Source: Spirochaetia bacterium
GTDB lineage: Bacteria > Spirochaetota > Spirochaetia > SZUA-6 > Bin103
NCBI GenBank assembly: GCA_965198005.1
Contig: CBDAOI010000001.1
Span: forward strand, 64,001-128,000
DNA: 64,000 bases
Direction: 5' to 3'
The notes under the pieces are model-generated. The model made no database searches. It was not told the origin of the DNA and saw nothing but the letters and a program-made list of their open reading frames with translations. The position numbers and the translations under genes were made by a program. Each line of letters opens with the position of its first letter. Position 1 is the first letter of the stretch. Shown here in pieces: positions 10,251-31,619 of the stretch.

Positions 10251-10370
10251 GCCGCCCAGCACGGTCCTTCTAGCACGCGCGGGAAGGCGAAGATTCGCTT
10301 GTAGTTGTCGTCGGTTGATAGCGCGGCCCGGTACTTGCCGAACGGGCGGAAAGTGACCATATTATGCCGT

Positions 10371-10793
10371 ATGGCAACGGTGGCCTCAGCGGCGCGTGAC
10401 ACTCGCCCCAACCGCGCCAGTGAAATCAGCGACGCGGAAACACTCGCCCTGCTGCGCGCATTCTTCAATCTGGTACGGCGGTGGGCGCTCAACGACCAGC
10501 AGGGGCGAATCCTCCTGGGCGGGCCGGCCGCGCGCACCTACGCGCGCTGGAAAGCCGGACAGGTCGAGCTGTCGCGCGTTTCACGCGACACCCGTGAGCG
10601 GCTGTCCACACTGATGGGCATTCACCGGAACCTGCGATACCTGTTTCCCGATCCGTCGCGCGGTTACCGTTGGCTGCGCAAGCCGAACCAGGCGTTCGGC
10701 GGCCAACCGGCGTTGAACCGGCTGCTTGGCGGATCGATCCCGGATCTGGCCGCTGTCCGCGCCTATCTCGACGCGGAACGCGGCGGTTGGTAG
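10371..10793 (+). CDS. Xre/MbcA/ParS-type antitoxin
   Basis: RERLSTLMGIHRNL, WLRKPNQAFGGQPAL, VRAYLDAERGGW. Confidence 0.9.
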   Translation: MATVASAARDTRPNRASEISDAETLALLRAFFNLVRRWALNDQQGRILLGGPAARTYARWKAGQVELSRVSRDTRERLSTLMGIHRNLRYLFPDPSRGYRWLRKPNQAFGGQPALNRLLGGSIPDLAAVRAYLDAERGGW

Positions 10794-11485
10794 TCCCTCG
10801 CACCAGCCGCGTTCGCTGGCCGCGGGCCGTTCGCCTTGTCCGGTCGATGTACCCCCCGATCGACCTGTTCGAGGATATTGCGGATCGGGCCGACTGGGAA
10901 TTGATCGCCGCTGCCGAAGCCAAGACCAACCCGCGGGTGCGCGACGAAATCGGCGCCATCCATCTGGTGCCGCCGGCGCGGCGCGTGGCCGGGCCCGGCG
11001 CCAGCTGGGCGATGGCGCCGTTCTGCCACATATCGCGCGACCGGCCGAGCCGGTTCAGTGACGGGAGCTACGGCATGTACTACGCTGGAGACCGCTTCGA
11101 GGTGGCGCTGGCGGAGGCGGTGTACCACTTCGAGCGTTTCATGGCGGCAACCGATGAGGAGCCGGCCACCGCCGATTACCGCGAGCTGATCAGCCGTATC
11201 GACGCGGACCTGCACGACCTGCGCGACACGGCGGGTTTCGAAGCCGCGCTGGACGCCAACGACTACGCTGCTGCGCAGTCGTTGGCGCACGAACTGCGCT
11301 GGAACCATGCCAGCAACGGCATCGTCTATCCGAGCGTGCGCCACCCCGCGGGTGCGGCGGTGGCGGCGTTCTGGCCCGATGTGGCGGGCCTTCCCGTCCC
11401 TGGCAGACACCTCTGCTATCACTGGGACGGCCGTCGGGTGGATGCATGGTTGGTGTACGGAGAAGCAGACTGGCGCCCTCGGTGA
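10787..11485 (+). CDS. RES-family toxin (NAD+ phosphorylase-like)
   Basis: YPPIDLFE, SRFSDGSYG, ALAEAVYH, GIVYPSVR; overlaps the antitoxin stop. Confidence 0.9.
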   Translation: MVVPRTSRVRWPRAVRLVRSMYPPIDLFEDIADRADWELIAAAEAKTNPRVRDEIGAIHLVPPARRVAGPGASWAMAPFCHISRDRPSRFSDGSYGMYYAGDRFEVALAEAVYHFERFMAATDEEPATADYRELISRIDADLHDLRDTAGFEAALDANDYAAAQSLAHELRWNHASNGIVYPSVRHPAGAAVAAFWPDVAGLPVPGRHLCYHWDGRRVDAWLVYGEADWRPR

Positions 11486-12599
11486 TCGGGCGCCACCGCT
11501 CCAGCTCGAGGGTCGTGGCGACCAATCTCCCCGATTGCCGGGTCACCTCGTTGCTCAGCCCGAAGTAGCGGCGTCAAACCCTGCGATACCTGTGGCCGGC
11601 GACACGGTGGTGGCGACCGCGGCCTCGGGCACGGTCTGGTTGTACGCCCTGTGCGTTCAGCTGTTTCAGGAACACGGCATCGCGGTGGCGACCGACGGCG
11701 GCTTTCAAATCAGGGCGTTTGACGCCACCACCGTGAAGGAACCGGGCAAGACCGGAGCGCTGTGGCGCATCCACTGGAGCGTATGCCTGCCGTCGCTGGC
11801 GTGCGACTTCTTCAGGCTCACGCCAACCGAGGGGCCGGGCACCGGCGAATCGTTGGTTCAGTTCCCGATCCGCGCCGGCGATCATGTAGTGGCCGATCGC
11901 GGTTACTCGACAGCCCGCGGTATCGGTTATGTGGCGGCCGCCGGCGGTCAGCTCATCGTACGCGTCAATACCGGTGCGCTGGGGCTGCGCACAACCCAGG
12001 GTGAGCGGTTCGACCTGCTCGCCGCGGTCAGTTCGCTGAAGCGTGCCGGCGCCACCAAGTCGTGGACAACGCAGGTGGTGATCAACGATGACAGAGCACA
12101 ACCGGCCAGAACCGTACCCGGTCGAGTGTGCGCGCTGCGCAAGTCGGCAGCAGCGATCAAGCTGGCGCACCGCAAAGTCCGCCAGGAAGCAGCACGCAGG
12201 GGTAAGCGGACGCAAGCGGACACGCTGAGGTTTGCCGAATACGTGATCGTGTTCACCACCTTTCCGGCGGCGAGCTTCAGTGCCGCCGAGATTCTGGAGT
12301 GGTATCGCATTCGCTGGCAGGTGGAGTTGGTGTTCAAACGGTTCAAATCGTTGGCGCAGCTGGGCCACCTGCCGAAATACGACGACGACAGCGCCAAAGC
12401 GTGGCTGTACGGCAAGCTGCTGGTTGCGCTCCTGGTCGAGAAGCTGATCCGCCATGCCAGCGCTAGTTCCCCCTGGGGATACGAGTTGGCGCCGTCAGCG
12501 GCCACCCAGTGCGTGGCGTGACTTCAGGTTCGTGCTGGGCCAAGTCACCCGCACCATCGAACCGGCTCTGCCACTGGCGCGCATGGTTCACCAGTGGCA

Positions 12600-12688
12600 C
12601 GCTAGGAGTCTGTCGGATTGCGACAGACTCCTAGCGGTCGGACGGGATGGGCCAAAAGCGGCGCCCCGGCGGCGGTTTTGGGGCGCTA
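12600..12688. mobile_element. 84-bp insertion with CGCTA direct repeats and a CTAG-flanked hairpin
   Basis: CTAG-GAGTCTGTCG-GATTG-CGACAGACTC-CTAG; second copy at ~18491-18578. Confidence 0.55.
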
Positions 12689-12757
12689 TCTCGCGGGCGC
12701 TGGCTGAGCCGCCACGGCGCCGGCTGTCCCAGTTGTCAGGTTACTTCGATCTGGCGT

Positions 12758-12980
12758 GGTTGACGCGAGTCGCGAGTCGCGGGTCCGTGGTACGGTCGCA
12801 CCGTAGGGCCATGAGTTGCCAGATTTCTTCGACGCAGGTGGTTGACGCGAGTCGCGGGTCCGTGGTACGGTCGCACCGTAGAGCCATGAGCTGCCAGATT
12901 TCTTCGATTTTTTCGACGCGGCTGGTTGATCCGAGTCGCACGTCCGTGGTACGGTCGCACAGTAAAGTCATGCATGGCCC
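12758..12980. repeat. ~84-bp tandem repeat, about 3 units
   Basis: Core GTCCGTGGTACGGTCGCAC occurs 3 times; 2 units at ~18646-18787. Confidence 0.85.
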
Positions 12981-13011: not shown

Positions 13012-13272
13012 CCCCCCCCCCCACTTTTTCAAACCGAGAAACAACTAACCGCTCCGCCTGATCGCCCCGTACGTGCCCCCGCGCACGCCGTCGCCTTCAG
13101 CACCGGGGTAGCGGCCGGCTACGACCGCAACGGTCCTGGATCCCCGCCCCCCAACGCACCGTCACAGAACCGACCGCCGACGTCGCCGGTCAACCACATG
13201 CGTTGCTCGGCCGACCACCGCGCCGCGTGGCGTTGTGACGCAGGTCCCGACGTCCGCCGAGCGGTCGCTGTT
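13012..13272 (+). repeat. 'head' repeat copy with C11 tract
   Basis: Matches 478-652 and the reverse complement of ~63200-63290. Confidence 0.85.
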
Positions 13273-13355
13273 TGCATGAAGGGCACGCACGCGCTACGCG
13301 CAGCGCACACCACCTTACGTCAACCATCTGGCTGGGCACCCTGTAGCCCAAAAAG

Positions 13356-13542
13356 AGGAGGTGCAAAAATGATACTCAAAGAACCGCACGCGCGCGCGGC
13401 GTGAGCCGGGTGAACCCGTTGAGTCACACGCCGCGCGCTTTTAGTGTATTTGACTCTGACTGGCCGTCCGCGTTGGCGGGCGCGCCCGCTGTTGCGGGCA
13501 TAAGAGTAGCCAGGGAGCGGCAAGTCGCTCCGCAATACTCTC
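13356..13542 (+). promoter_or_regulatory. type-A leader copy 2 (uORF 13369-13404)
   Basis: Same SD, uORF and hairpins as 967-1133; the first stem is followed by TTTT. Confidence 0.6.
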
Positions 13543-13569
13543 AAAATCCAAGCAAGGATACTAACGACG

Positions 13570-15363
13570 ATGAGAATCTCATTTAGAATGACCTTCGCGA
13601 TTGCGTTGGTCCTCGTCCTGACCGCCACCGGCCTCTGGGCGGGTGGCGCCACAGACACGGAGTCGGCAACGGCGGCCGATAAGGAAATGGTGCGCGACCC
13701 GGCCACCGGCAAGATGGTGACCGCGCCCGAGTATGGCGGGACATTCACCCGCCCCTTAAAGGAAGAGTGGCATCATCCTGACCTGATGTTTTCTCGATGG
13801 GCGACAATATTCATCACTGGTGTTTTAGAGAAGCCAGCCATGGTGAACTGGGGAATAGATAGGGCCGAATTCAACTACGTAGGTGGGGACCCGCCTCTAT
13901 TTGCCTTGAAAGGCGGTCTGGCGGAAAGCTGGGAGCAACCCGACCCACTAACTATTATCTTCAAAGTCCGTCAGGGCGTTCACTGGCATAATAAGCCGCC
14001 GATGAACGGGCGGGAGCTGACTGCCCAAGATATCGAGTACAACTATCACCGTCTCTTGGGACTTGGCAGCGGTTTCACCGAAGTTAGCGAGGGTATTCCT
14101 GGGGGACTCACTGATGTGGTATTCGAATCGATAACGGCCACCGACAATTGGACAGTTGTTTTCACGCTGAAGGAGCCACACCTCGATGCGCTGCGGATTA
14201 TCCTCGACGACCACTATGTTCACATATACCCCCCCGAGGTAATCAAGGAACACGGCGACGCTACGGACTGGAGGAACCTGGTCGGCACCGGCCCCTTTAT
14301 GCTGACTGAGCGGGTCGAGGGCAGCTCGATTACGTGGACCAAGAATCCTGACTACTGGGGCTACGACGAAAAATACCCGCAGAACCGGCTGCCGTATGTT
14401 GACGAGATCAGGTCCCCGATTATGCCAGAAGAGGCAACATATCTGGCGGCACTGCGCTCGGGTAGGGTTGATTGGCTCGGTCACGTCAATGTAATAAGGT
14501 CTGTCGACCAGGCAGAGAGCCTCCAGCGGTCCAACCCCGAAATCGATCTGTGGACGATCTTCGGTGCGTCGACAACTGCGACCGGTCTTAACGTGAGTAT
14601 GGCGCCCTTTAACGACATCAGGGTGCGTAAGGCAATGCAGATGGCACTGGACCTCGAGACAATCAATGATGTCTACTTCAAGGGTTATGGAGATACCACA
14701 CCCCACGGGCAGATGGGTGATGCCGGCATCGGGTATTTCATACCATTTGAAGAGTGGCCCGAAGAGGTCAAGAAGGGCTATATGTACGATCCGGCAGGGG
14801 CGGAAGCTTTGCTGGATGAGGCCGGATATCCGCGGGGCGCCGACGGCATTCGATTCAAGCCCGTATTTACCGAAAGCGCGCGGTACGATCTGAGCTTTAG
14901 AGAACTACTCGCTTCATACTGGCGTGACATTGGCGTTGATATCGAGATTAAGGTATATCAATCTGCAGAGCGTTCCGCTATAAGAAAAGCCCGTACTTTC
15001 GAAATGATTTACCACGAAATGGCTTATGGGAGCATAGCTAATCCCCTCTCTGGTCCGAGCCGATTTCTCTCGACGGTTCCATACAACAGCGTCGCAGCGG
15101 AAGACCCGGTTTATGACGCCATGTATGAAGCCGCGGCAGCCGCTACAACCATCGAGGAGCAGCAGAGGCTGGTTAAAGAACTGGACATGTACGCGATAGA
15201 GAGGCACTGGGCCGTATGGGCTATTGCGGCTCCAACATTTGAAGCGGTACAGCCGTGGGTCAAAGGTTACAACGGTGAACTCCAGTTGGGGGGCATCGAC
15301 GTAAATTTCGTCCTCGCCCGCCTCTGGATTGATAGCGAGCTGAAGGAAGCTATGGGTCAATAG
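13570..15363 (+). CDS. ABC substrate-binding protein family 5, unit 2
   Basis: Paralog of unit 1 with the same motifs. Confidence 0.95.
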   Translation: MRISFRMTFAIALVLVLTATGLWAGGATDTESATAADKEMVRDPATGKMVTAPEYGGTFTRPLKEEWHHPDLMFSRWATIFITGVLEKPAMVNWGIDRAEFNYVGGDPPLFALKGGLAESWEQPDPLTIIFKVRQGVHWHNKPPMNGRELTAQDIEYNYHRLLGLGSGFTEVSEGIPGGLTDVVFESITATDNWTVVFTLKEPHLDALRIILDDHYVHIYPPEVIKEHGDATDWRNLVGTGPFMLTERVEGSSITWTKNPDYWGYDEKYPQNRLPYVDEIRSPIMPEEATYLAALRSGRVDWLGHVNVIRSVDQAESLQRSNPEIDLWTIFGASTTATGLNVSMAPFNDIRVRKAMQMALDLETINDVYFKGYGDTTPHGQMGDAGIGYFIPFEEWPEEVKKGYMYDPAGAEALLDEAGYPRGADGIRFKPVFTESARYDLSFRELLASYWRDIGVDIEIKVYQSAERSAIRKARTFEMIYHEMAYGSIANPLSGPSRFLSTVPYNSVAAEDPVYDAMYEAAAAATTIEEQQRLVKELDMYAIERHWAVWAIAAPTFEAVQPWVKGYNGELQLGGIDVNFVLARLWIDSELKEAMGQ

Positions 15364-18063: not shown

Positions 18064-18788
18064 GTCCGATGTAGCTCTGCTGAAGCGCCTGCGGAAATCA
18101 AAGGACTGGTTGTACGCCCTGTGCGTTCAGCTGTTTCAGGAACACGGCATCGCGGTGGCGACCGACGGCGGCTTTCAAATCAGGGCGTTTGACGCCACCA
18201 CCGTGAAGGAACCGGGCAAGACCGGAGCGCTGTGGCGCATCCACTGGAGCGTATGCCTGCCGTCGCTGGCGTGCGACTTCTTCAGGCTGACGCCGACCGA
18301 GGGGCCGGGCAGCGGCGAATCGTTGGTTCAGTTCCCGATCCGCCATGCCAGCGCTAGTTCCCCCTGGGGATACGAGTTGGCGCCGTCAGCGGCCACCCAG
18401 TGCGTGGCGTGACTTCAGGTTCGTGCTGGGCCAGGTCACCCGCACCATCGAACCGGCTCTGCCACTGGCGCGCATGGTTCACCAGTGGCACGCTAGGAGT
18501 CTGTCGGATTGCGACAGACTCATAGCGGTCGGACGGGATGGGCCAAAAGCGGCGCCCCGGCGGCGGTTTTGGGGCGTATCTCGCGGGCGCTGGCTGAGCC
18601 GCCACGGCGCCGGCTGTCCCAGTTGTCAGGTTACTTCGATCTGGCTGGTTGACGCGAGTCGCAGGTCCGTGGTACGGTCGCACCGTAGAGCCATGAGCTG
18701 CCAGATTTCTTCGATTTTTTCGACGCGGCTGGTTGATCCGAGTCGCACGTCCGTGGTACGGTCGCACAGTAAAGTCATGCATGGCCCC
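18064..18788 (+). mobile_element. IS4-family copy 2 with 579-bp internal deletion
   Basis: SDVALLKRLRKSKDWLYAL..FPIR joined to HASASSPWGY; near-identical to 11636-12980. Confidence 0.9.
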
Positions 18789-19075
18789 GAGTTAGCCGGG
18801 CGCGACCGCTACCTTCTGCGGAGCCTGCGTGGTCCGCTGACCGCGGCGCTGCCTCGCGGCCGATTCGTCGTCGGCCGGTCACCTCACCAGGCGGGAACTC
18901 CCGGCAACGGGCCGCTCGCCCGCGGTCCACCCGCCGGCGCCCCAGGCACTGCTCGTGACCGAGGGTGCCGCCCTCGCTGTTCGGTCCCTGCGAATCGCAG
19001 GCATACCGCGAGAGTCGGCGCGGGCCGGCACTGAATTCAGCACTCTCGAAACAACGAAGGTTTGGAGGAAACCTC
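18789..19075 (+). promoter_or_regulatory. type-B structured leader
   Basis: Near-identical to 24950-25237; several hairpins; SD lies in the loop of AGGTTT-GGAGG-AAACCT. Confidence 0.6.
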
Positions 19076-20884
19076 ATGATACGAAATTGTAGACTATGGG
19101 TTGCGGTACTGATCGGGTTGGTCCTGGCCGCGACCGCCGCCTGGGCGGCGCCGGCCGGCGAGGAACAGGCCGCGGCCTCGGACAAGCCGATGGTGACCGA
19201 CCCGACGACCGGGATGCAGGTCACCGCGCCAGAGTATGGCGGGACACTGACCTACCCGTACAAGCTGTTCGGGGAGACCACCGACCCGCATATCACAGGA
19301 CACTACGCCGGCTATCAGATCTACGCGGTCAACGAGAAGCTTGCGAAGGGAGACTGGGGTGCTCCCCGGGACGAGGTGAGCTTTACCGGTTGGTATGTGC
19401 CGTTCTCGCGCTTCAAGGGCCACCTGGCCGAGAGCTGGGAGCAGCCGGACGACCGAACGCTGATCGTCGAGATCAAACCGGACATCCGCTGGCACGACAA
19501 GCCGCCGGTCAACGGGCGCGAGCTCACCGCCGAAGACGTCGCCTTTACCTACCGCCGCATTGCCGGCCTGCTCGACTTCGAGCCCAGAGTCGCCGGCGAG
19601 GTTGAGGGTTATCCGTGGGAATCCATCGAAGCCCTTGACCGATACACGGTCGAGTTCAAGCTGACCGAGCCGCGCGCCGGCCTGGCCCGGGCGATCCTCG
19701 GCCAGCACAACTCATGGATTCTGCCACCCGAGGTCATCGAGCAGCACGGTGACTACAGCGACTGGCGAAACGTGGTCGGCACCGGGCCGTTCATGCTCAC
19801 TGACTACGTCGAGGGCGTCTCGATGACCAGGACGCGCAATCCCAACTACCACGACTTCGACGAGAAGTATCCGGAGAACCGGCTGCCCTACGTCGACGAG
19901 CTGAAGGGTCTGTTCATGGCGGAGGAGGCGACCCGCCTCGCCGCGTTTCGCACCGGCCAGGTCGACATGATCCACGTTGCCGGCGGCGGCGTCGACATCA
20001 AGACCTTCGAGGTGATAGAGTCGGTGTTGCGCACCAACCCCGACATCCAGGTGGGCCCCTACTTCCTCCGGGCGCTCGGGCAAATCGGCCTGAACACCCG
20101 TAGGCCGCCTTTCGACGACATCCGCGTCCGCCAGGCAATGCAGATGGCGATCGACCGCGAGGCGGTTAACGAGAGCTACTATGGCGGGTACGCGCTGTGG
20201 AAGCCCCAGGGCATGTTCGGCAACGCGACCGGCCCCTATTTCCTTCCATTCGACGAGTGGCCAAAGGAGCTCCAGGACCAATACCGCTACGACCCGGAGA
20301 AGGCGGAGCAATTGTTCGACGAGGCCGGCTACCCACGCGGCGCGGACGGCGTGCGCTTCAGGGCCACCTACGACCACCGCGACGTCATCGACCTGGGCCT
20401 CGCCGAGATCGCGGCCGGCTACTTCAAAGAGATCGGCGTGGAGGTGGAGATCAACGTCTACGACAGCAGCACCTGGTGGAGTCGTAAAGGGGACGGACTC
20501 TACGAGATGACCACCGGCGATTTGGGCTTCGATGCAGCCCCTGAACACATCATAGGCTTCGCCCGTTCTCTTGGGCCGGACACCGAGCCGCACGGTTGGA
20601 ACGAGTGGTTCGGTGGGATTCCCAGCGCCACGCTGATTCGACTCTATAACGAGTTCCAAACAGCGACCAGCGAGGCGGAGCTGATACGAATCGCCAAGGA
20701 GTTCGACCAGTACCTCGTTTCGCAGCATTTTCAGGTATGGACCGGCAAGTCGCCCGGATTCCAGGTGGCGCATCCGTGGGTCAAGGGCTGGAACGGCGAG
20801 ACGTTCGTGCACCCAGAAAACTATCACGAGGTTCTTGCCCGGCTCTGGCTCGACCGGGACCTGAAGGCAGAAATGGGGTTTTGA
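19076..20884 (+). CDS. ABC substrate-binding protein family 5, unit 3
   Basis: GGAGG SD, signal peptide, APEYGG, GTGPF, DIRVRQA. Confidence 0.95.
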   Translation: MIRNCRLWVAVLIGLVLAATAAWAAPAGEEQAAASDKPMVTDPTTGMQVTAPEYGGTLTYPYKLFGETTDPHITGHYAGYQIYAVNEKLAKGDWGAPRDEVSFTGWYVPFSRFKGHLAESWEQPDDRTLIVEIKPDIRWHDKPPVNGRELTAEDVAFTYRRIAGLLDFEPRVAGEVEGYPWESIEALDRYTVEFKLTEPRAGLARAILGQHNSWILPPEVIEQHGDYSDWRNVVGTGPFMLTDYVEGVSMTRTRNPNYHDFDEKYPENRLPYVDELKGLFMAEEATRLAAFRTGQVDMIHVAGGGVDIKTFEVIESVLRTNPDIQVGPYFLRALGQIGLNTRRPPFDDIRVRQAMQMAIDREAVNESYYGGYALWKPQGMFGNATGPYFLPFDEWPKELQDQYRYDPEKAEQLFDEAGYPRGADGVRFRATYDHRDVIDLGLAEIAAGYFKEIGVEVEINVYDSSTWWSRKGDGLYEMTTGDLGFDAAPEHIIGFARSLGPDTEPHGWNEWFGGIPSATLIRLYNEFQTATSEAELIRIAKEFDQYLVSQHFQVWTGKSPGFQVAHPWVKGWNGETFVHPENYHEVLARLWLDRDLKAEMGF

Positions 20885-20957
20885 CGCGAGCGCCGCTCGC
20901 TTAGTTACACCATCAACGCGCGATTGGCTGCGGCCGACCGCGTTTTACTTCGAACGC

Positions 20958-20984
20958 GGGGTGGCGGGAACAGCCTGCCACCCC
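20958..20984 (+). terminator. intercistronic stem-loop
   Basis: GGGGTGGC..GCCACCCC; identical copy at 27092-27118. Confidence 0.55.
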
Positions 20985-21023
20985 TTCTTATGGTGCCGTG
21001 ATGATGAGAGGAAGTGAGCTGAG

Positions 21024-21995
21024 ATGCGGGCGTATGTGATCAGGCGGATACTGCTGGTGATCCCGACCCTGTTCATCGTCACCGTCCTGGTGTTTCTCTC
21101 GGTTCGCTTCATTCCCGGCGACATCATCGATGTGATGACAGCCCGGATGACCGCAACCCAGAGCGGCACGATCGATGAGGAGGCTCTGAAGAGACGACTC
21201 GGACTCGATAAACCCGTCTACGCGCAATACGCGAAGTGGATCGGTGACATCGTCCTGCGTGGCACCCTCGGCCGCTCGCTGTACAGCGGCTCGTTGGGCA
21301 GCGCCACGGTGGAACAGAAACTCGCCGGCAGGGTCGGGGTAACGGTCGAGCTGGGGCTGCTGGCGATCCTCACTGGGGTCATCATCGCCGTGCCGATCGG
21401 GATCTACTCGGCGATTCGCCAATACACGCTGGCCGACTACGCCGGCCGGGCGGTCGCCATCTTCGGCCTGGCGACACCCAACTTCTGGCTGGGACTGATG
21501 GTGATGATCTACCCCGCAATCTGGTGGGGCTGGACGCCGCCGCTGACGCACGTCCGCTTCACCGAAGACCCATGGGCCAATCTCGGCATGTTGATCATTC
21601 CCGCCGTGATTCTGGGGACCTACCTGGCAGCGAGCACCATGCGCATGACGCGCACGATGATGCTGGAGGTGCTGCGCCAGGACTACGTGAGGACCGCCTG
21701 GGCCAAGGGCCTGGCGGAGAGGACAGTGGTGCTGCGCCACGCGGTCAAGAACGCCCTCATCCCGGTGGTGACCCTGGTGGCGCTGCAGTTGCCCATCATC
21801 GCCGGCGGCTCGGTCATCATCGAGAACATCTTCAATCTCCCGGGGCTCGGCAGTCTGATGCTGTCTGCCCTCAACACGCGCGACTACCCGGTGGTCTCCG
21901 GCGTGAACCTGTTATTTGCCTCGGTGGTGGTGGTGATCAACCTCGGCACCGACCTGACCTACGCGCTGCTGGATCCGCGGGTGCGCTATGAGTGA
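21024..21995 (+). CDS. DppB-like permease, unit 3
   Basis: LEVLRQDYVRTAWAKG, LDPRVRYE. Confidence 0.95.
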   Translation: MRAYVIRRILLVIPTLFIVTVLVFLSVRFIPGDIIDVMTARMTATQSGTIDEEALKRRLGLDKPVYAQYAKWIGDIVLRGTLGRSLYSGSLGSATVEQKLAGRVGVTVELGLLAILTGVIIAVPIGIYSAIRQYTLADYAGRAVAIFGLATPNFWLGLMVMIYPAIWWGWTPPLTHVRFTEDPWANLGMLIIPAVILGTYLAASTMRMTRTMMLEVLRQDYVRTAWAKGLAERTVVLRHAVKNALIPVVTLVALQLPIIAGGSVIIENIFNLPGLGSLMLSALNTRDYPVVSGVNLLFASVVVVINLGTDLTYALLDPRVRYE

Positions 21996-23118
21996 GCCGG
22001 TGCCGGTCGATGCGGCCGGGGCCGGCCGCGCAGGCCGAGGCGCAGGAGGCGCAGGCGCAGGCGCAGGCGCAGGCGGAGGCGCAGGCGCAGGCGGAGGCGG
22101 AGACGCAGGCCGTGGCGCAGGCGCCCGCGGTGGTGGCGGCCCAAGCGGAGGCACCCGTGGCGGACCCTCCGCGGCGGGCGCTCCTGCAGCGGCGCGCCGG
22201 CGACCGGTGGCCAGCTTCCTGTTGCGGTTGCTGAAGGAGCAGCCGCTGGGAGCTGTTGGCGCCCTCATCGTGCTGGCGTTGGTGTTCATCACCATCTTCG
22301 CCGCGCAGCTCGCGCCCTACGAATTCGACCGCGGCCGGGTGCAGGACCGGATGCAGGGTCCGTCGGCCGCGCACCTGCTGGGCACCGACCACGTCGGCCG
22401 CGACTTCCTGAGCCGCCTCATCATCGGCGCGCGCCTGTCGATCACGGTCGGGCTGGCGGCGACGTCGCTGAACGTGATCGTCGCGCTGCTGATCGGCGGC
22501 ACCACCGGCTTCGTCGGCGGCCGGCTAGACATCTACGCACAGCGGTTCGTGGACGCGTGGATGTCGTTTCCGGGGCTGCTGTTGCTGCTCACCATCATGT
22601 CGATCGCCGGCCGCGGCGTGGTGCAGATCATCGTCGTGCTCGGGGTGGCCGGCGGCATTCCCGCGTCACGGGTGGTGCGCGGCGCCGTGATCGGGGTCAA
22701 GGAGAACGCCTACTTCCAGGCCGCGAAGGCGACCGGCGCCCGCACGCTGCGCACGCTGGTCCGTCACGTGCTGCCCAACATCGCGGCGCCGCTGATCGTC
22801 GTGTTCAGCATCAACGTCGGCGGCGTGATCATCGCCGAGGCCTCGCTGAGCTTCCTCGGGTTCGGCCTGCCGGCGACCGTTCCGAGCTGGGGCGGCATGC
22901 TGAGCCGCGAGGGCCGCCAGTACATGGAGATTGCCCCGCGCCTGGCGCTGTGGCCGGGCCTGTGCCTGACGGTGACGGTCTACGCCCTCAACCTGTTCGG
23001 CGACGCGCTGCGCGACCTGCTCGACCCGCGCCTGCGCGGCGCCGCCGGCCGCTACGGAGGCGGGCGCCGCCCACGCCGCGCGCCGCCGCGGTATCGGGCA
23101 CCCCGGCCTATTGGATGA
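21988..23118 (+). CDS. DppC-like permease with Gly/Ala-rich N-terminal tail, unit 3
   Basis: LGTDHVGRD, RHVLPN; overlaps the dppB stop. Confidence 0.93.
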   Translation: MSEPVPVDAAGAGRAGRGAGGAGAGAGAGGGAGAGGGGDAGRGAGARGGGGPSGGTRGGPSAAGAPAAARRRPVASFLLRLLKEQPLGAVGALIVLALVFITIFAAQLAPYEFDRGRVQDRMQGPSAAHLLGTDHVGRDFLSRLIIGARLSITVGLAATSLNVIVALLIGGTTGFVGGRLDIYAQRFVDAWMSFPGLLLLLTIMSIAGRGVVQIIVVLGVAGGIPASRVVRGAVIGVKENAYFQAAKATGARTLRTLVRHVLPNIAAPLIVVFSINVGGVIIAEASLSFLGFGLPATVPSWGGMLSREGRQYMEIAPRLALWPGLCLTVTVYALNLFGDALRDLLDPRLRGAAGRYGGGRRPRRAPPRYRAPRPIG

Positions 23119-23130
23119 CGACGGTGTGAT

Positions 23131-23391
23131 TCAGCCGGCCCTGTGCTTTGCCAGACGATGTTGATCCAGTGCCTGGCGCAGAAAGGACTTGATCACGGCC
23201 TGGCGACTGACATTCAGCTCGGCAGCGAGCTGATCTAGTTCCTGCAGCATCCCAGCCGTAAAGTCGACGTTCACGCCTCTCACCGGCTGCTTCATCGTCC
23301 CTCGGTTGGTGAAGTACGGTGAAATGTCGTTTCCGCCATCCGCCAGGTCGGCGATCTCGTCAGCAGTCGGTCGGCTGGCTGTTCTCTTCAT
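23131..23391 (-). CDS. CopG/BrnA-like antitoxin
   Basis: VNVDFTAGMLQELDQLAAELNVSRQAVIK (RHH pattern). Confidence 0.85.
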   Translation of the reverse strand: MKRTASRPTADEIADLADGGNDISPYFTNRGTMKQPVRGVNVDFTAGMLQELDQLAAELNVSRQAVIKSFLRQALDQHRLAKHRAG

Positions 23392-23653
23392 ATAGTCTCT
23401 CTTCCTCTCTCGTCGATCGCCACAGCGTCACCAAATGATAGTACTCGCCGTCTCCATCTTCCCGGACTTCGAATACCAGCGAATACAACCGTTCCCGCAC
23501 CCAGCCAACAGCGCGGAACTGCTCCGGATCGTCAGACCTGCAGTCCTCGTAGTACGGATGCGCGAAGATTCCCTGCGCTTCCTCAAAACCGATACCTCGC
23601 TTCGGATTGTTGCGAAGCATTCGACTCTTGTTCTGGTCAAACTTGAAACGCAT
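23360..23653 (-). CDS. BrnT-family toxin
   Basis: MRFKFDQNKS..KRGIGFEEAQGIF..TREEERLYE. Confidence 0.85.
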   Translation of the reverse strand: MRFKFDQNKSRMLRNNPKRGIGFEEAQGIFAHPYYEDCRSDDPEQFRAVGWVRERLYSLVFEVREDGDGEYYHLVTLWRSTREEERLYEENSQPTDC

Positions 23654-24051
23654 CCTGGAGCATAACGGTGTACTTGGTTGGCTGTCAACCCAACCGACTC
23701 GGGCATGCGATCAGGACCGTGACCGAAGACGCGACGACATTTCGTAGACGGGGCATACGGTTCAGAGAGATCCGTCGAGCCCGACGGATTGCAGCGTCTC
23801 GACAACCTCCACGCGGTCACCGTCGGCGACGGACAACTGGTAACGCTCCATGGCTTCCTTTGCCGCAGCCTCGACATCACCTGCCACTTGCCACGCGTCG
23901 ACATGCAACCGAAGCACGACTCTCTCGTCGCCGGATGCCTGGATCGCCAGCCTGTCGCCCATAATCGGGCGCCAGCGCCAGCATGCCGATTCGAGCGGCT
24001 CGCCGGCCCCGCACGTGATCTGCATAGTCACGATCCACTGCTTCGGCCGCC

Positions 24052-24582
24052 GGAAGCCGCAGCCCGCGACCGGGAAGCGGCCGCCCGCGAGCGGGAGGTG
24101 GCAGCCCGCCAGGGGCGTGCCATGAACAAGCGCTGGGGCGAGTTGGCCAACAAAATGGGTACCGTCGTCGAGGACATCGTGGCACCCAGTGTCCGCCGCC
24201 TGGCCGGTGAGGTGTTCGACTGTGGCGACATGCGGTACTTCGGCACCCGCGTATCCGTCAAGCGCAGCGATGATCCCTCCCGCGAGCGCGAGTTCGACGC
24301 GCTCTACGTGGGCACTCGGGGGGTGCTGCTCAACGAGACCAAGTCCTCGGCGCGCATCGAAGATGCGCGCGCGTTCGATGAGTTTCTGCGCGGCAACCAG
24401 TTTGGGCTCTACTTTCCGCAGTACGCGGAGCTGCCGATCGTGCCGGCGTTCTCGTCGCTGAGATTGCGGACAGTATCGTGACGTATCTGAGCCGGCGCGG
24501 GATCTACGCCCTGACGATGGGAGACGAGGCGATGCAGGTGCTCAACCTGAACGCGGTGCGCAGCCGGCGTACCGCTCCGTGA
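24052..24582 (+). pseudogene. coiled-coil + PD-(D/E)XK nuclease-like protein, 5'-truncated and frameshifted near 24461
   Basis: NKRWGELANKMGTVVEDIVAP, EFD..NETKS; C-terminus IADSIVTYLSRRGIYAL is in another frame. Confidence 0.7.
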
Positions 24583-24860
24583 GCGGGATTCTGACTTCCG
24601 CCGCCGTAGCCTGTGATAGCCTGCCTGCCTGTTGACAGGTGGTCGCGGCGTGAGTTACGGTGGCTGGGAGTGGGGACTCCGACCGATGGGGATGGTGCCT
24701 GGTGCGCAAGAGTGTGCCTGACGTGCCTGACGACACGTGCTTGACGGCTGTTGCAGCGGCGGCTATGGTGACTGCCTTGGGAGCGCGACCGATGCGCATG
24801 ATGCATGACGACACCTACCCGCGCAGCCACTGGTCAGCCTTGAAGCGGCCGGTGAAACGT

Positions 24861-24910
24861 CTGTCTACGCTCCTGTCTACGCTCCTGTCTACGCTCCCCC
24901 CCCCCCCCCC
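24861..24910. repeat. 3 x 12-bp tandem repeat + C15 tract
   Basis: (CTGTCTACGCTC)3, then C run 24896-24910. Confidence 0.95.
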
Positions 24911-24949
24911 GGGCCGGGGGCCATTTCCATACAACCTCAGAAACACTAA

Positions 24950-25237
24950 CGAGTTAGCCGGGCGCGACCGCTACCTTCTGCGGAGCCTGCGTGGTCCGCT
25001 GACCGCGGCGCTGCCTCGCGGCCGATTCGTCGTCGGCCGGTCACCTCACCAGGCGGGAACTCCCGGCAACGGGCCGCTCGCCCGCGGTCCACCCGCCGGC
25101 GCCCCAGGCACTGCTCGTGACCGAGGGTGCCGCCCTCGCTGTTCGGTCCCTGCGAATCGCAGGCATACCGCGAGAGTCGGCGCGGGCCGGCACTGAATTC
25201 AGCACTCTCGAAGAAACGAAGGTTTGGAGGAAACCTC
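24950..25237 (+). promoter_or_regulatory. type-B structured leader, copy 2
   Basis: Matches 18789-19075. Confidence 0.6.
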
Positions 25238-27046
25238 ATGATACGAAATTGTAGACTATGGGTTGCGGTACTGATCGGGTTCGTCCTGGCCGCGACCGAC
25301 GCGTCGGCGGCGCCCGCCGGCGAGGAAGCGGCCGCGGCTGCGGACAAGCCGATGGTGACCGACCCGACCACCGGCAAGGTGGTAACCGCGCCAGAGTACG
25401 GCGGCACGCTGACCTACCCGTACAAGCTGTTCGGGGAGACCACCGACCCGTCGATCACAGGACACTACGCCGGCTGGCAGATCACCGCGGTCAACGAGAA
25501 GCTTTCGAAGGGAGACTGGGGTGCTCCCCGAGACGAGTTCAGCTTTACCGGGTGGTATGTGCCGATCTCGGGCTTCAAGGGCCACCTGGCCGAGAGCTGG
25601 GAGCAGCCGGACGACCGCACGCTGATCGTCAAAATCAAACCGGGGGTCCACTGGCACGACAAGCCGCCGGTCAACGGGCGCGAGCTCACCGCCGAAGACG
25701 TCGCCTTTACCTACCGCCGCCATGCCGGCCTGCTCGACTTCGAGCCCGTATTCGTCGCCGAGGTTGAGAGCTATCCGTGGGAATCCATCGAAGCCCTTGA
25801 CCGATACACGGTCGAGTTCAAGCTGAGCGAGCCGCGCGCCGGCCTGGCCCGGGCGATCCTCGGCCAGGCCAACATATGGGTGCTACCTCGCGAGGTCATC
25901 GAGCAGCACGGTGATTACGCCGACTGGCGAAACGTGGTCGGCACCGGGCCGTTCATGCTCACTGACTACGTCGAGGGCGTCTCGATGACCAGGACGCGCA
26001 ATCCCAACTACCACGACTTCGACGAGAAGTATCCGGAGAACCGGCTGCCCTACGTCGACGAGCTGAAGGGTCTGTTCATGGCGGAGGAGGCGACCCGCCT
26101 CGCCGCGTTTCGCACCGGCCAGGTCGACATGATCCACGTTGCCGGCGGCGCCACCGAGATCAAGACCTTCGAGGTGATAGAGTCGGTGCTGCGCACCAAC
26201 CCCGACACCCAGGTGGGTCCCTACTTCCTGCGCGCGCTCGGGCAGATCGGCCTGAACATCCGTAGGCCGCCGTTCGACGACATCCGCGTCCGCCAGGCAA
26301 TGCAGATGGCGATCGACCGCGAGGCGGTTAACGAGAGCTACTATGGCGGGTACGCGCTGTGGAAGCCCCAGGGCATGTTCGGCAACGCGACCGGACCCTA
26401 TTTCCTTCCATTCGACGAGTGGCCAAAGGAGCTCCAGGACCAATACCGCTACGACCCGGAGAAGGCGGAGCAATTGCTCGACGAGGCCGGCTACCCACGC
26501 GGCGCGGATGGGGTGCGGTTCAAGGTCACCCACGAACACCGCGACGTCATCGACCTGGGCCTCGCCGAGATCGCGGCCGGCTACTTCAAAGAGATCGGCG
26601 TGGAGGTGGAGATCGACATCTACGACACCACCACTTGGGTCAATCGCCGCGTCGACGGGGTTCACGAGATGACCACCGGCGATTTGGGCTTCGATTCACC
26701 CCCCGAACTCATCATAGGCTTCGCCCGTTTTCTTGCAACGACTCAGGAGCCGCACAATTGGAACGAGTGGCTGGGTGGGATTCCCAACGCCACGCTGACT
26801 CGGCTGTATAACGAGTTCCAAACAGCGACCAGCGAGGCGGAGCTGATTCGAATCGCCAAGGAGTACGACCAGTACGTCATTTCGCAGCATTTTCAGGTAT
26901 GGACCGGCAAGTCGCCAGGATTCCAGGTGGCGCATCCGTGGGTCAAGGGCTGGAACGGCGAGACGTTCGTGCAGCAAGACGCCTATCACCAGGTTCTCGC
27001 CCGGCTCTGGCTCGACCGGGACCTGAAGGCAGAAATGGGGTTTTGA
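25238..27046 (+). CDS. ABC substrate-binding protein family 5, unit 4
   Basis: Same length as unit 3 and a close paralog. Confidence 0.95.
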   Translation: MIRNCRLWVAVLIGFVLAATDASAAPAGEEAAAAADKPMVTDPTTGKVVTAPEYGGTLTYPYKLFGETTDPSITGHYAGWQITAVNEKLSKGDWGAPRDEFSFTGWYVPISGFKGHLAESWEQPDDRTLIVKIKPGVHWHDKPPVNGRELTAEDVAFTYRRHAGLLDFEPVFVAEVESYPWESIEALDRYTVEFKLSEPRAGLARAILGQANIWVLPREVIEQHGDYADWRNVVGTGPFMLTDYVEGVSMTRTRNPNYHDFDEKYPENRLPYVDELKGLFMAEEATRLAAFRTGQVDMIHVAGGATEIKTFEVIESVLRTNPDTQVGPYFLRALGQIGLNIRRPPFDDIRVRQAMQMAIDREAVNESYYGGYALWKPQGMFGNATGPYFLPFDEWPKELQDQYRYDPEKAEQLLDEAGYPRGADGVRFKVTHEHRDVIDLGLAEIAAGYFKEIGVEVEIDIYDTTTWVNRRVDGVHEMTTGDLGFDSPPELIIGFARFLATTQEPHNWNEWLGGIPNATLTRLYNEFQTATSEAELIRIAKEYDQYVISQHFQVWTGKSPGFQVAHPWVKGWNGETFVQQDAYHQVLARLWLDRDLKAEMGF

Positions 27047-27157
27047 CGCGAGCGGAGCTCGCGTTTAGCGTCAGCGTTTGACTACGAACACGGGGTGGCG
27101 GGAACAGCCTGCCACCCCTTCTTATGGTGCCGTGATGATGAGAGGAGGTGAGCTGAG

Positions 27158-28145
27158 ATGCGGGCGTATGTGATCAGGCGGGTACTGCTGGTGATCCCGA
27201 CCCTGTTCATCGTAACCGTCCTGGTGTTTCTCTCGGTTCGCTTCATTCCCGGCGACATCATCGACGTGATGATCGGCCGGATGAGCTTCGGAGCAGCAGG
27301 AAGCCTAGCTAGGCGTCACGATCGATGAGGAGGCTCTGAAGAGACGGCTCGGGCTCGATAAACCCGTCCACGTGCAGTACGCGAAGTGGATCGGTGACAT
27401 CGTCCTGCGCGGCACCCTCGGCCACTCGCTGTACAGCGGCTCGTCGGCCGGCACCACGGTGGAGGAGAAGCTCGCCGGCAGGGCCGGGGTCACGGTGGAG
27501 CTGGGGCTGCTGGCGATCCTCACCGGGCTCATCATCGCCGCGCCGATCGGCATCTACTCGGCGATTCGCCAGTACACGGTGGCCGACTACGCCGGCCGGG
27601 CGGTCGCCATCTTCGGCCTGGCGACCCCCAACTTCTGGCTGGGACTGATGGTGATGATCTACCCCGCCATCTGGTGGGGCTGGACGCCGCCGCTGACCCA
27701 CGTCGGCTTCTCCGAGGACCCCTGGGCCAATCTCGGCATTCTGATCGTTCCCGCCCTGATTCTGGGCACCTACCTGGCGGCGAGCACGATGCGCATGACG
27801 CGCACGATGATGCTGGAGGTGCTGCGCCAGGACTACGTGCGGACCGCCTGGGCCAAGGGCGTGGGGGAGCGGAGGGTGGTGCTGAGCCACGCGGTGAAGA
27901 ACGCGCTCATCCCGGTGGTGACCCTGGTGGCGCTGCAACTCCCCATCATCGCCGGCGGCTCGGTGATCATCGAGAACATCTTCAATCTGCCGGGGCTCGG
28001 GCGCCTGATGCTGACCGCCCTCAACGAGCGCGACTACCCGGTGGTTTCCGGCATCAACCTGCTGTTCGCCTCGGTGGTGGTGGTGATCAACCTCGGCACC
28101 GACCTGACCTACGCGCTGCTGGACCCGCGGGTGCGCTATGAGTGA
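27158..28145 (+). pseudogene. DppB-like permease, unit 4, frameshifted by a CTAG duplication
   Basis: CTAGCTAG at 27305-27312; removing 4 bp gives one 328-codon ORF. Confidence 0.9.
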
Positions 28146-29262
28146 GCCGGTGCCGGGCGATGCGGCCGGGGCCGGCCGCGCAGGCCGAGGCGCAGGCGGA
28201 GGCGCAGGCGCAGGCGGAGGCGCAGGCGCAGGCGGAGGCGGAGACGCAGGCCGTGGCGCAGGCGCCCGCGGTGGTGGCGGACCAAGCGGAGGCACCCGTG
28301 GCGGCCCAAGCGGAGGCACCCGTGGCGGACCCTCCGCGGCGGGCGCTCCTGCACCGGCGCGCCGGCGACCGGTGGCCAGCTTCCTCTCGCGGTTGCTGAA
28401 GGAGCAGCCGCTGGGAGCCGTTGGCGCCCTCATCGTGCTGGCGTTGGTGTTCATCACCATCTTCGCCGCGCAGCTCGCGCCCTACGAATTCGACCGCGGC
28501 CGGGTGCAGGACCGGATGCAGGGTCCGTCGGCCGCGCACCTGCTGGGCACCGACCACGTTGGCCGCGACTTCCTGAGCCGCCTCATCATCGGCGCGCGCC
28601 TGTCGATCACGGTCGGGTTGGCGGCGACGTCGCTGAACGTGATCGTCGCGCTGCTGATCGGCGGCACCACCGGCTTCGTCGGCGGCCGGCTCGACATCTA
28701 CGCGCAGCGGTTCGTGGATGCGTGGATGTCGTTTCCGGGGCTGCTGTTGCTGCTCACCATCATGTCGATCGCCGGCCGCGGCGTGGTGCAGATCATCGTC
28801 GTGCTCGGGGTGGCCGGCGGCATTCCCGCGTCGCGGGTGGTGCGCGGCGCGGTGATCGGGGTCAAGGAGAACGCCTACTTCCAGGCCGCGCAGGCGACCG
28901 GCGCCCGCACGCTGCGCACGCTCGTCCGTCACGTGCTGCCCAACATCGCGGCGCCGCTGATCGTCGTGTTCAGCATCAACGTCGGCGGCGTGATCATCGC
29001 CGAGGCGTCGCTGAGCTTCCTCGGCTTCGGCCTGCCGGCGACCGTTCCGAGCTGGGGCGGCATGCTGAGCCGCGAGGGCCGCCAGTACATGGAGATTGCA
29101 CCGCGGCTGGCGCTGTGGCCGGGCCTGTGCCTGACGGTGACCGTCTACGCCCTCAACCTGTTCGGCGACGCGGTGCGCGACCTGCTGGACCCGCGGCTAC
29201 GCGGCGCCGCCGGCCGCTACGGGGGCGGGCGCCGCCCACGCCGCACGCCGCGCCGCGGCTGA
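28138..29262 (+). CDS. DppC-like permease with Gly/Ala-rich N-terminal tail, unit 4
   Basis: Close paralog of unit 3. Confidence 0.93.
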   Translation: MSEPVPGDAAGAGRAGRGAGGGAGAGGGAGAGGGGDAGRGAGARGGGGPSGGTRGGPSGGTRGGPSAAGAPAPARRRPVASFLSRLLKEQPLGAVGALIVLALVFITIFAAQLAPYEFDRGRVQDRMQGPSAAHLLGTDHVGRDFLSRLIIGARLSITVGLAATSLNVIVALLIGGTTGFVGGRLDIYAQRFVDAWMSFPGLLLLLTIMSIAGRGVVQIIVVLGVAGGIPASRVVRGAVIGVKENAYFQAAQATGARTLRTLVRHVLPNIAAPLIVVFSINVGGVIIAEASLSFLGFGLPATVPSWGGMLSREGRQYMEIAPRLALWPGLCLTVTVYALNLFGDAVRDLLDPRLRGAAGRYGGGRRPRRTPRRG

Positions 29263-29574: not shown

Positions 29575-29627
29575 GCCCACCGTACGGTTAGGCGCGCACC
29601 AGGGCGGTTGATCGATACCGCGTCGTG

Positions 29628-29761
29628 CGCCAGTACATGGAGTGGCGCCGCGCTTGGCGATCTGGCCGGGCCTGTGCCTGACGATCGTGGTCTACAGCAT
29701 CAACATGTTCGGCGACGCGCTACGCGACCTGCTCGACCCCCGGCTGCGCGGCAGCGTCTGA
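29628..29761 (+). pseudogene. orphan dppC 3' end
   Basis: RQYME..LAIWPGLCLTIVVYSINMFGDALRDLLDPRLRGSV*; near-identical to the 7279-7390 piece. Confidence 0.9.
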
Positions 29762-30471: not shown

Positions 30472-30799
30472 CGGTCCACCCGCCGGCGCCCCAGGCACTG
30501 CTCGTGACCGAGGGTGCCGCCCTCGCTGTTCGGTCCCTGCGAATCGCAGGCATACCGCGAGAGTCGGCGCGGGCTGGAGGTGCTGCGCCAGGACAGCTGA
30601 TAGTGGTCCTGCCATGCTCAGCCGCGAAGGGCGTGAGTACATGCAGCAGGCGCCATGGCTGGCGCTCTGGCCGGGCCTGTGCCTGACGATCGTGGTCTAC
30701 AGTCTGAACATGTTCGGCGATGCGGTGCGGGACCTGCTCGACCCGCGGCTCAGGGGTGGTGGGGGACGTCTCGGTGCCGCTGCCGCCGGGTCGGTCTAG
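30472..30799 (+). pseudogene. collapsed ABC unit (leader + dppB piece + two dppC pieces)
   Basis: 30472-30574 matches leader 18923-19025; 30573-30594 is dppB LEVLRQD; then QLIVVL; then MLSREG..LDPRLRG. Confidence 0.85.
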
Positions 30800-30965
30800 C
30801 GCCTCCTGCAGGTGCTCCGTGACAGTCGTTTCTGCGCGGTGGGCGGCTGCATCGCCCGCGGCCGGCGCTCGGTCACCGCTTTGCCGCGCCGGGGAGGGGA
30901 TAATCGGGATCGACTCGTTGACAGATGCACTTGGCGGCCCGATACTCGTCATTGAGAATGACCAC

Positions 30966-31619
30966 ATGGACACCACGGTTGCCGCGCGACATTACCGGGG
31001 ACTCCGCATCGTCACGTCCGACGACTGCACGGTGGCTGACCTGTCGGCGCTGCAGCGGTTCTGGACCGAAGCGCAGTACCTGACGCTGACCAACCACAGT
31101 CATCGTCTGATCGAGTTCACCGACGGCTGCATCGAGATCCTGCCCATGCCTACCCAACGACACCAAGCGATTTCGCGGTTCCTGTTCCTGGCATTGGTTG
31201 CGGCCGTTCGCAACCGCGGAGGGGACGTGTTCTACGCTCCGCTGCGTCTGCGGATTCGCAACGGCAAGTTCCGCGAGCCGGACATCATGCTCGTCCGCAA
31301 GGCCGGAGACCCGCGCTGTCGCGATGACTTCTGGATCGGCGCCGACCTGGTCATGGAGGTGGTGAGTCCTGACGATCCGTACCGCGACCTCGTCGAGAAG
31401 CGCATCGACTACGCGGAGGCGGGCATTCCCGAATACTGGATCGTCAATCCCATCGACGACACGGTGACCGTGCTCGTCCTCGGCGACGGCGAATACCGGG
31501 AGCACGGCGTGTTCCGCGCGGGCGCGTACGCCGATTCGCCAAACCTGCCCGACGTCTCGATTTCCGTAAGCGACACGTTCGAAGCGGCACTGCCGCGTCA
31601 CCACGGCGCATCGCCATAG
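30966..31619 (+). CDS. Uma2-family endonuclease
   Basis: REPDI, ADLVMEVVSP, KRIDYAEAGIPEYWIV. Confidence 0.92.
   Translation: MDTTVAARHYRGLRIVTSDDCTVADLSALQRFWTEAQYLTLTNHSHRLIEFTDGCIEILPMPTQRHQAISRFLFLALVAAVRNRGGDVFYAPLRLRIRNGKFREPDIMLVRKAGDPRCRDDFWIGADLVMEVVSPDDPYRDLVEKRIDYAEAGIPEYWIVNPIDDTVTVLVLGDGEYREHGVFRAGAYADSPNLPDVSISVSDTFEAALPRHHGASP

Follow-up and report, generated by a model that had tools for sequence, protein, structure and literature searches.

Identical blocks and clustered replacements in a tandem pair of family 5 substrate-binding protein genes from a spirochaete

The stretch of DNA analyzed here, hereafter the window, comprises 64,000 nucleotides (nt) from a Spirochaetia bacterium (GenBank assembly GCA_965198005.1, contig CBDAOI010000001.1, positions 64,001 to 128,000 of the forward strand) and carries two tandem transporter cassettes, A and B, each headed by a gene for a substrate-binding protein (SBP), SBP3 and SBP4. 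The cassettes constitute a duplicated 4.3-kb block (18788-23091 and 24950-29258) made up of a 288-nt leader, the SBP gene, and two permease genes, and a 1.86-kb spacer lies between them. Pfam assignments of the neighboring open reading frames (ORFs) placed a DppB-like and then a DppC-like permease gene after each SBP gene, and no ATPase gene within the cassettes. The features considered below are as follows, all on the plus strand and in window coordinates.

18788..19075, plus strand: cassette A leader, the 288 nt ahead of SBP3, 99.3% identical to the cassette B leader
19076..20884, plus strand: SBP3, predicted family 5 (cluster C) periplasmic substrate-binding protein of 602 amino acids (aa); PF00496, E=4.6e-67
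19759..19988 (= 25921-26150), plus strand: 230-nt block identical in SBP3 and SBP4, candidate gene conversion tract
21024..21995, plus strand: cassette A permease 1 (DppB-like), 323 aa; PF00528 and PF19300
21988..23118, plus strand: cassette A permease 2 (DppC-like), 376 aa; PF00528 and PF12911
24950..25237, plus strand: leader of cassette B, start of the 4.3-kb homology block
25238..27046, plus strand: SBP4, paralog of SBP3, 602 aa, intact ORF; PF00496, E=1.4e-67
27158..28145, plus strand: cassette B permease 1, frameshifted; the ORF list has only a 257-aa piece, 27372-28145
28138..29262, plus strand: cassette B permease 2, 374 aa; PF00528 and PF12911

The products of SBP3 and SBP4 scored 227.2 and 228.8 bits against PF00496 (SBP_bac_5), whose curated cut-off is 32.4. 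An AlphaFold2 model of SBP3, built with 103 homologs, reached a mean predicted local distance difference test (pLDDT) score of 90.1 and a predicted template modeling (pTM) score of 0.86, and its best Foldseek matches were DppA, OppA, AppA, NikA, and AccA (16-21% identity, E=1e-35 to 1e-28, TM-score of 0.59-0.70 on the query). Model and profiles identify SBP3 and SBP4 as family 5 ATP-binding cassette (ABC) binding proteins with a predicted fold of the DppA/OppA type. The N terminus of both proteins reads as a predicted signal peptide ending in AWA/ASA-AP. A GGAGG ribosome binding site (RBS) is located 8 nt ahead of the SBP3 ATG, at the end of the leader, and the SBP leader carries a CTCTC-GAAA motif ahead of the RBS. 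The cassette A leader is 95-99% identical to the leaders of related cassettes in other genomes; an Rfam scan of the whole window assigned the leaders to no family at gathering score.

Relative to five related cassettes, cassette B has 16 extra nt in permease 1, at about 27287-27303, so that the ORF starting at 27158 stops at 27326-27328 and homology resumes in another frame. This frameshift reflects either a real pseudogene or an assembly indel; short Logan contigs displayed no indel at this site, an absence that is no proof of agreement between the reads and the window. A contig from an RNA library matched the SBP4-specific stretch 26411-26695 with a single mismatch, and contigs of another RNA library tiled SBP3 from 18759 to 21011, DNA carry-over being possible in both libraries. 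Stretches without RNA contig cover are no evidence of silence.

Each SBP gene spans 1809 nt (602 codons and a stop codon), and the two align without gaps. They differ at 135 nucleotides (92.5% identity), with a replacement in 70 codons and only a synonymous difference in a further 34, leaving the proteins 88.4% identical. The longest identical run, of 230 nt, lies between gene positions 683 and 914. When 135 differences were placed at random 10,000 times, the longest run averaged 69.6 nt and never reached 230. Similarly, the gaps between differences were over-dispersed (coefficient of variation [CV] of 2.14 versus 1.03 at random, a value reached in 0 of 10,000 placements), and codons with two or three differences numbered 21 and 5, against 9.2 and 0.24 expected. 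An initial annotation of this locus had described two genes of equal length in which long identical blocks alternate with replacement clusters. Both ORFs and the 230-nt block proved real, every peptide pair it quoted (e.g., EPRVAGEVEG/EPVFVAEVES and HPENYHE/QQDAYHQ) was found in the translations, and the clustering is far above chance. It was also right in dismissing a diversity-generating retroelement (DGR). The differing sites fall on A in 29 of 135 cases in SBP3 and 30 of 135 in SBP4, which matches the share of A in the gene (20%), and all 12 substitution types are present; we rejected a DGR target on this spectrum, which lacks adenine bias. No reverse transcriptase appeared among the Pfam families of the neighboring ORFs scanned, although no search aimed at it was made. 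A match to group II intron RNA (D1-D4, RF02005, 105 bits) at 784-929 on the minus strand, inside the upstream part of the ORF 744-2960, whose downstream end encodes another family 5 SBP, was the sole feature of retroelement-like character.

To the age of the pair, orthologs in three other genomes of the genus are informative. SBP3 is 99.3, 97.6, and 97.0% identical at the nucleotide level to its orthologs in G001, G006, and G005, respectively, and SBP4 is about 92% identical to all three. With a clade of genes at about 79% identity as the outgroup for polarity, SBP4 carries the outgroup state at 69 of the 135 differences and SBP3 at 45, the remaining 21 being ambiguous. At 53 of those 69 sites, all three orthologs carry the SBP3 state. 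Since these SBP3-side changes are common to three other species, the duplication is older than the species split, and both lineages have changed. Together with a synonymous divergence (dS) of 0.116, this contradicts a recent tandem duplication. Branch counts gave 37.8 nonsynonymous (N) and 15.2 synonymous (S) changes on the SBP3 stem and 17 N and 16 S on the SBP4 branch (Fisher P=0.068), the latter with a pN/pS of 0.32.

Both types are also recognizable in other sequences. The metagenomic protein P0004 matches SBP4 with 94% identity across 575 aa. Of the 70 positions where the pair differs, 55 carry the SBP4 residue in P0004, 9 the SBP3 residue, and 4 some other residue, the last 2 being gaps. 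In the SBP3 orthologs, 58-64 of the 70 SBP3 states are preserved; in more distant relatives, roughly half of the 70 positions hold a residue found in neither SBP3 nor SBP4. The pair thus represents two fixed types rather than an actively varying locus. P0004 is called as 945 aa, with a 343-residue N-terminal extension labeled Peptidase_M56, which is either a mis-called long ORF or a true fusion. The ortholog cassette in G001 sits in a different genomic neighborhood. Recent horizontal transfer was considered as the cause of the 99.3% identity between SBP3 and its G001 ortholog and was rejected, because unrelated flanking genes are also 96-99% identical.

Comparison of entire cassettes revealed that their segments do not share one history. 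Cassettes A and B are 99.3% identical in the leader, 92.5% in the SBP gene, 91.8% in permease 1, and 97.1% in permease 2, with dS values of 0.116, 0.195, and 0.074 in the SBP, permease 1, and permease 2 genes, respectively. The corresponding identities between cassette A and the G001 cassette are 99.0, 99.3, 99.7, and 90.5%, and their dS is 0.002 in the SBP gene versus 0.205 in permease 2. Furthermore, permease 1 of cassette B is nearer to that of a third cassette type, G005b (dS of 0.113), than to that of cassette A (0.195). These discordant identities and dS values indicate that adjacent cassette modules have different histories.

Recombination was also detectable within the SBP gene. In a GENECONV-like permutation test on the 636 sites that vary among nine genes, 55 consecutive variable sites passed without an SBP3-SBP4 difference (alignment nt 696-911; P=0.001, or 0.036 after correction for 36 pairs), and an N-terminal tract at nt 37-117 was common to SBP4 and the G005b-type gene (P=0.0005). 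The pairwise homoplasy index (PHI) test on the nine genes gave P=0.0005. At gene nt 719 and 750, SBP3 of this genome (G000) carries the SBP4/outgroup state against all three orthologs, and a derived G at nt 801 occurs only in SBP4 and in the SBP3 genes of G000 and G001. Synonymous differences between SBP3 and SBP4 were clustered (CV of 1.41 versus 1.00, P=0.0135) and enriched near replacements (odds ratio [OR] of 2.2-2.7, P=0.012-0.045); for instance, they occurred at 11 of 82 codons within one codon of a replacement versus 23 of 422 elsewhere (OR of 2.7, P=0.015). Concerted evolution by gene conversion between paralogs is thus real at the scale of modules, with one supported intragenic tract. 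The patches tell a different story. Among all tblastn paralogs of this genome, about 10% of which is missing from the assembly, compared ungapped over 11 patch windows, no patch donor was found: the best paralog was less similar to SBP3 or SBP4 than these are to each other in 9 windows and tied in 1. In the remaining one (27 nt, codons 427-435), the closer paralog carries an intermediate, apparently ancestral motif rather than either derived one. Segmental conversion, as invoked by the initial annotation, is therefore supported by the tract test, PHI, and the discordant modules, but the patches were not imported from paralogs of this genome; conversion would explain the identical blocks, not the patches.

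We then looked at selection on the replaced positions, with ratios of nonsynonymous to synonymous divergence (dN/dS) from counting methods only (Nei-Gojobori for the pair, parsimony counts on the nine-gene tree). Over the entire gene, the pair has a dN of 0.068 and a dN/dS of 0.59, and a value of about 0.6 is usual in this SBP clade (e.g., SBP3 versus G005b at a dS of 0.37). The permeases range from 0.10 to 0.28, with 0.24 for permease 1 of cassette A versus B. Position variability was ranked in 98 homologs less than 72% identical to SBP3, and hence independently of the pair. From the lowest to the highest quartile of family entropy, the 70 replacements distribute as 5, 10, 14, and 41 (Mann-Whitney p=3e-12). 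The dN/dS of the pair rises in parallel (0.12, 0.52, 0.54, and 1.16, the last not different from 1; Fisher p=0.87), as does that of the nine-gene tree (0.11, 0.41, 0.61, and 1.00; P=0.54 for the last). The patches listed in the initial annotation had a dN/dS of 1.48 in the pairwise comparison and of 1.31 over the nine-gene tree (P=0.09 for the latter), values that are post hoc, given that these patches had been picked for their many replacements; dS is 0.31 inside them versus 0.097 outside. SBP3 and its G001 ortholog (locus L025) differ at 12 sites, 11 N and 1 S, which is not significant against neutrality (binomial estimate of about 0.2). The patches appear to evolve at about the neutral rate. 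A dN/dS close to 1 is compatible with relaxed loops or with a mixture of sites that includes positive selection, and the diversifying selection proposed earlier is not borne out by any dN/dS significantly above 1.

The positions of the patches were compared with known ligand contacts through profile alignment with solved relatives, the contact residues being those that PMC3295651 names. The best profile matches of SBP3 were E. coli DppA (1DPP/1DPE) and Haemophilus parasuis GbpA (3M8U), with E=1e-35 to 1e-38 over ~450 residues. In DppA, R355 is the Arg that binds the C-terminal carboxylate of the peptide. The Asp that salt-bridges the peptide N terminus is D408 (PMC3295651), and the mutant sequence 8Z1Z (R383D and D436R in precursor numbering) marks both residues in the alignment. 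The 3M8U chain is numbered as in PMC3295651 minus 22, so that its S408, D410, and A358 are S430, D432, and A380 of GbpA. DppA R355 aligns with Y432 of SBP3, or with D433 in the GbpA register, where SBP4 has H and E, respectively. GbpA A380 aligns with H434. DppA D408 and GbpA D432 align with F485, anchored by the conserved P489 and just before the changes at 487, 488, and 491; at ~20% identity, this register is uncertain by one residue, D486 being adjacent. Furthermore, GbpA Y138 falls in a loop aligned to the patch 171-178, and extrapolation places Y521 near residue 579, where the last patch begins. It is precisely at these contact-aligned positions that the family consensus has an undefined residue ("x"). 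Several patches thus seem to coincide with canonical ligand contact segments, which supports a role in specificity, if approximately. The assignment of the changes to the ligand pocket in the initial annotation is upheld to this extent, the mapping being approximate. As the canonical Arg and Asp clamps of DppA appear, in this alignment, to be replaced by Tyr/His or Asp/Glu and by Phe, the ligands of SBP3 and SBP4 may not be ordinary peptides.

Taken together, these data are probably best explained by old paralogs that diverged at family-variable sites and share stretches homogenized by conversion. In such a scenario, the tandem cassettes of this sponge-associated spirochaete would each be headed by an established family 5 SBP paralog, the duplication being older than the divergence of four or more species of the genus. 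Replacements would have accumulated on both branches, more of them on the SBP3 stem, and would have fallen almost only at family-wide hypervariable positions, among them the strand and the loop on which DppA and GbpA have their ligand-anchoring residues. Purifying selection would then have held each type stable, most likely yielding two receptors with different ligand preference. Recombination and conversion among cassettes would meanwhile shuffle and homogenize kilobase-scale modules (leader, permease 1, and permease 2) and cover at least one ~230-nt tract inside the SBP gene, leaving the long identical blocks. The alternating pattern would thus arise because strong site-to-site rate differences combine with conversion that erases divergence between patches. 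Several observations weigh against this explanation. No SBP4 ortholog was found in the 10 other genomes of the genus searched (76-98% complete), where the best matches were SBP3 orthologs. The intragenic evidence for conversion amounts to a single tract, PHI was not significant for the five closest genes (P=0.115), and the longest-run test on synonymous differences alone gave P=0.065. The pocket mapping relies on profile alignments at ~20% identity with a register uncertain by one residue. A dN/dS of about 1 at variable sites fits relaxed loop constraint equally well, and the permease 1 frameshift means that SBP4 may be part of a decaying cassette.

Some of the same evidence could also be read as a recent tandem duplicate driven apart by diversifying selection on the ligand pocket, with the patches as the selected sites. 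Consistently with this idea, the overall dN/dS (0.59) exceeds the values of the partner permeases (0.10-0.24) by a factor of 2.5-6, patch values exceed 1 (1.48 and 1.31), five codons differ at all three positions versus 0.24 expected, and replacements prevail on the SBP3 stem (37.8 N versus 15.2 S) and between SBP3 and its G001 ortholog (11 N, 1 S). We nonetheless regard it as unlikely: the pair is not recent, as judged by the 53 SBP3-side changes in three other species and the dS of 0.116; no excess over 1 is significant (1.16, p=0.87, and 1.00, P=0.54, in the top quartile; P=0.09 for the post hoc patches); about 0.6 is the norm of the clade; and a patch dS three times that outside (0.31 versus 0.097) is not predicted by selection alone. 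Relaxed constraint, with SBP4 drifting in a decaying cassette B and the patches as loosely constrained surface loops, would accommodate the frameshift, the dN/dS of about 1 at variable sites, the lower pLDDT (84-89) of ten-residue blocks at 161-180, 301-310, and 491-510, and the remnants of collapsed cassettes nearby. It is improbable in view of the intact SBP4 ORF, the lower N:S of the SBP4 branch (17:16, pN/pS of 0.32), the conservation of the SBP4 type at 94% in P0004, and the SBP4-specific contig in an RNA library. More change occurred on the SBP3 side, whose cassette is intact, and the frameshift is possibly an assembly error.

Least credible is that the clusters represent short conversion tracts from distant paralogs, as in cassette-based antigenic variation. 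Potential donors do abound in the genome (more than 120), codons changed at several nucleotides are overrepresented, SBP4 shares the tract at nt 37-117 with the G005b-type gene (P=0.0005), and the permease 1 gene of cassette B has its nearer counterpart in the G005b cassette, not in A. However, no better donor was found in 10 of the 11 windows (9 worse, 1 tied), the exception carrying an intermediate motif; the patch states are stable across species; and the shared N-terminal tract corresponds to the signal peptide and linker, outside the patches. Of the earlier interpretation as a whole, recombination and the receptor repertoire stand, whereas positive selection is not shown and patch import lacks a donor among the paralogs of this genome. 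Old divergence at family-variable sites, combined with conversion of the intervening stretches, is thus the reading that we retain.

The pair belongs to a very large family. A tblastn search with SBP3 on the 4.9-Mb genome returned 123 matches covering at least 500 residues, which bears out the receptor repertoire postulated earlier (at least 123 full-length paralogs). Genome-wide, at least 133 PF00496 matches contrast with 8 matches to oligo_HPY, the Dpp/Opp-type ATPase domain, and most SBP-permease cassettes of this genome have no ATPase gene of their own. Two further family 5 SBP cassettes lie within the window, at 744-2960 and 13570-15363. After SBP3 and SBP4 themselves, the nearest member of the family in this genome (59-63% aa identity; G000:C4:2329227-2330560, minus strand) is split into three adjoining pieces and is probably a broken copy. 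As to origin, a close homolog is named "MAG: Spirochaetaceae bacterium" (MAG, metagenome-assembled genome), and the RNA runs containing this DNA are labeled sponge metagenome. A literature search on SBP expansion in sponge spirochaetes retrieved nothing relevant at the title/abstract level, which is not proof that it is unpublished.

The surroundings of the cassettes are rich in mobile and toxin-antitoxin-type genes. One mobile element adjoins cassette A:

18103..18779, no strand assigned: insertion sequence (IS) element remnant bordering cassette A on its leader side, with 98% and 93% identity to 11633-11873 and 12446-12888

This remnant derives from an element with a DDE transposase, whose gene is at 11307-12521, and position 18788, where cassette A begins, is the very point at which contigs of other samples depart from the window. 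Cassette fragments at 30472-30577, 30613-30750, 29618-29752, 7285-7404, 9142-9400, and 10005-10252 resemble collapsed or deleted cassettes; in one of them, 106 nt of the SBP3/4 leader (99%) run straight into the 3′ end of a permease 2 gene, and several others are permease pieces at 81-97% identity. AbiEii-like, AAA_14/DUF4143, RES-domain, and Uma2 genes occur between the cassettes (5605-6615 on the minus strand, 7638-8861, 10670-11485, and 30720-31619). The ~530 nt upstream of the SBP gene at 13570 (13013-13548) are repeated, at 69-90% identity, ahead of 20 or more further genomic sites.

The duplicated tuf genes of Salmonella exemplify concerted evolution of bacterial paralogs by gene conversion. 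The cassettes described here resemble them in the long identical tracts within one genome, the discordant segment trees, and the clustered synonymous differences. Unlike in tuf, conversion is partial, with the SBP genes at 92.5% and the leader and permease 2 at 97-99%, and exchanges also involve a third, G005b-like cassette type. DGRs and cassette-based antigenic variation systems (vls and pilE) generate variable patches in a conserved frame. SBP3 and SBP4 likewise have variable patches in an otherwise conserved frame, but they differ from these systems in the lack of adenine bias, the lack of patch donors among those searched, and patch states that are fixed across species.

Closer counterparts are found among peptide transporters. 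Pseudomonas aeruginosa combines DppA1-A5, paralogs with distinct substrate profiles, with DppBCDF (PMC4206461, PMC12728205), and Borrelia burgdorferi has five OppA proteins, two permease pairs, and one ATPase pair (PMC5736914). These systems have in common with ours the Pfam family and the fold, binding proteins that differ while translocator parts are shared or nearly identical, and ATPases that are far fewer than SBPs (8 versus at least 133 here). In contrast, this spirochaete has more than 120 paralogs instead of five, a permease pair of its own for each SBP, and no cassette ATPase. Relative to DppA and GbpA, Foldseek indicated a shared three-lobed fold, and the ligand contact segments of both align with variable patches of SBP3/SBP4; nevertheless, identity is only 16-21%, SBP3 and SBP4 have an N-terminal extension of ~70 residues, and the canonical Asp and Arg do not appear to be conserved.

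Collectively, SBP3 and SBP4 are a case of ordinary paralog divergence in a known binding protein family, a common bacterial way to widen uptake. They also illustrate neatly, on a small scale, how a very large transporter repertoire grows: relative to silent change, the binding protein outpaces its permeases three- to fivefold, and does so at positions that align with ligand contacts in solved relatives, while the other modules are reshuffled by recombination. With 70 differences in one frame, they are a convenient pair for locating the residues that set specificity. A bolder possibility, which we hold to be speculative and rather doubtful, is that these cassettes, more than 120 in number, make up a modular receptor repertoire in which recombination would keep leader RNA and permeases interchangeable and almost identical, selection would exempt the pocket patches from such homogenization, and SBP4, with a broken permease in its own cassette, would deliver to those of the neighboring one. 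If so, one cell would display over a hundred ligand specificities energized by about four ATPase pairs. For the sponge symbiosis, the size of the family (at least 133 SBPs versus 8 ATPase domains in 4.9 Mb) suggests a very wide uptake of compounds derived from the host or from seawater.

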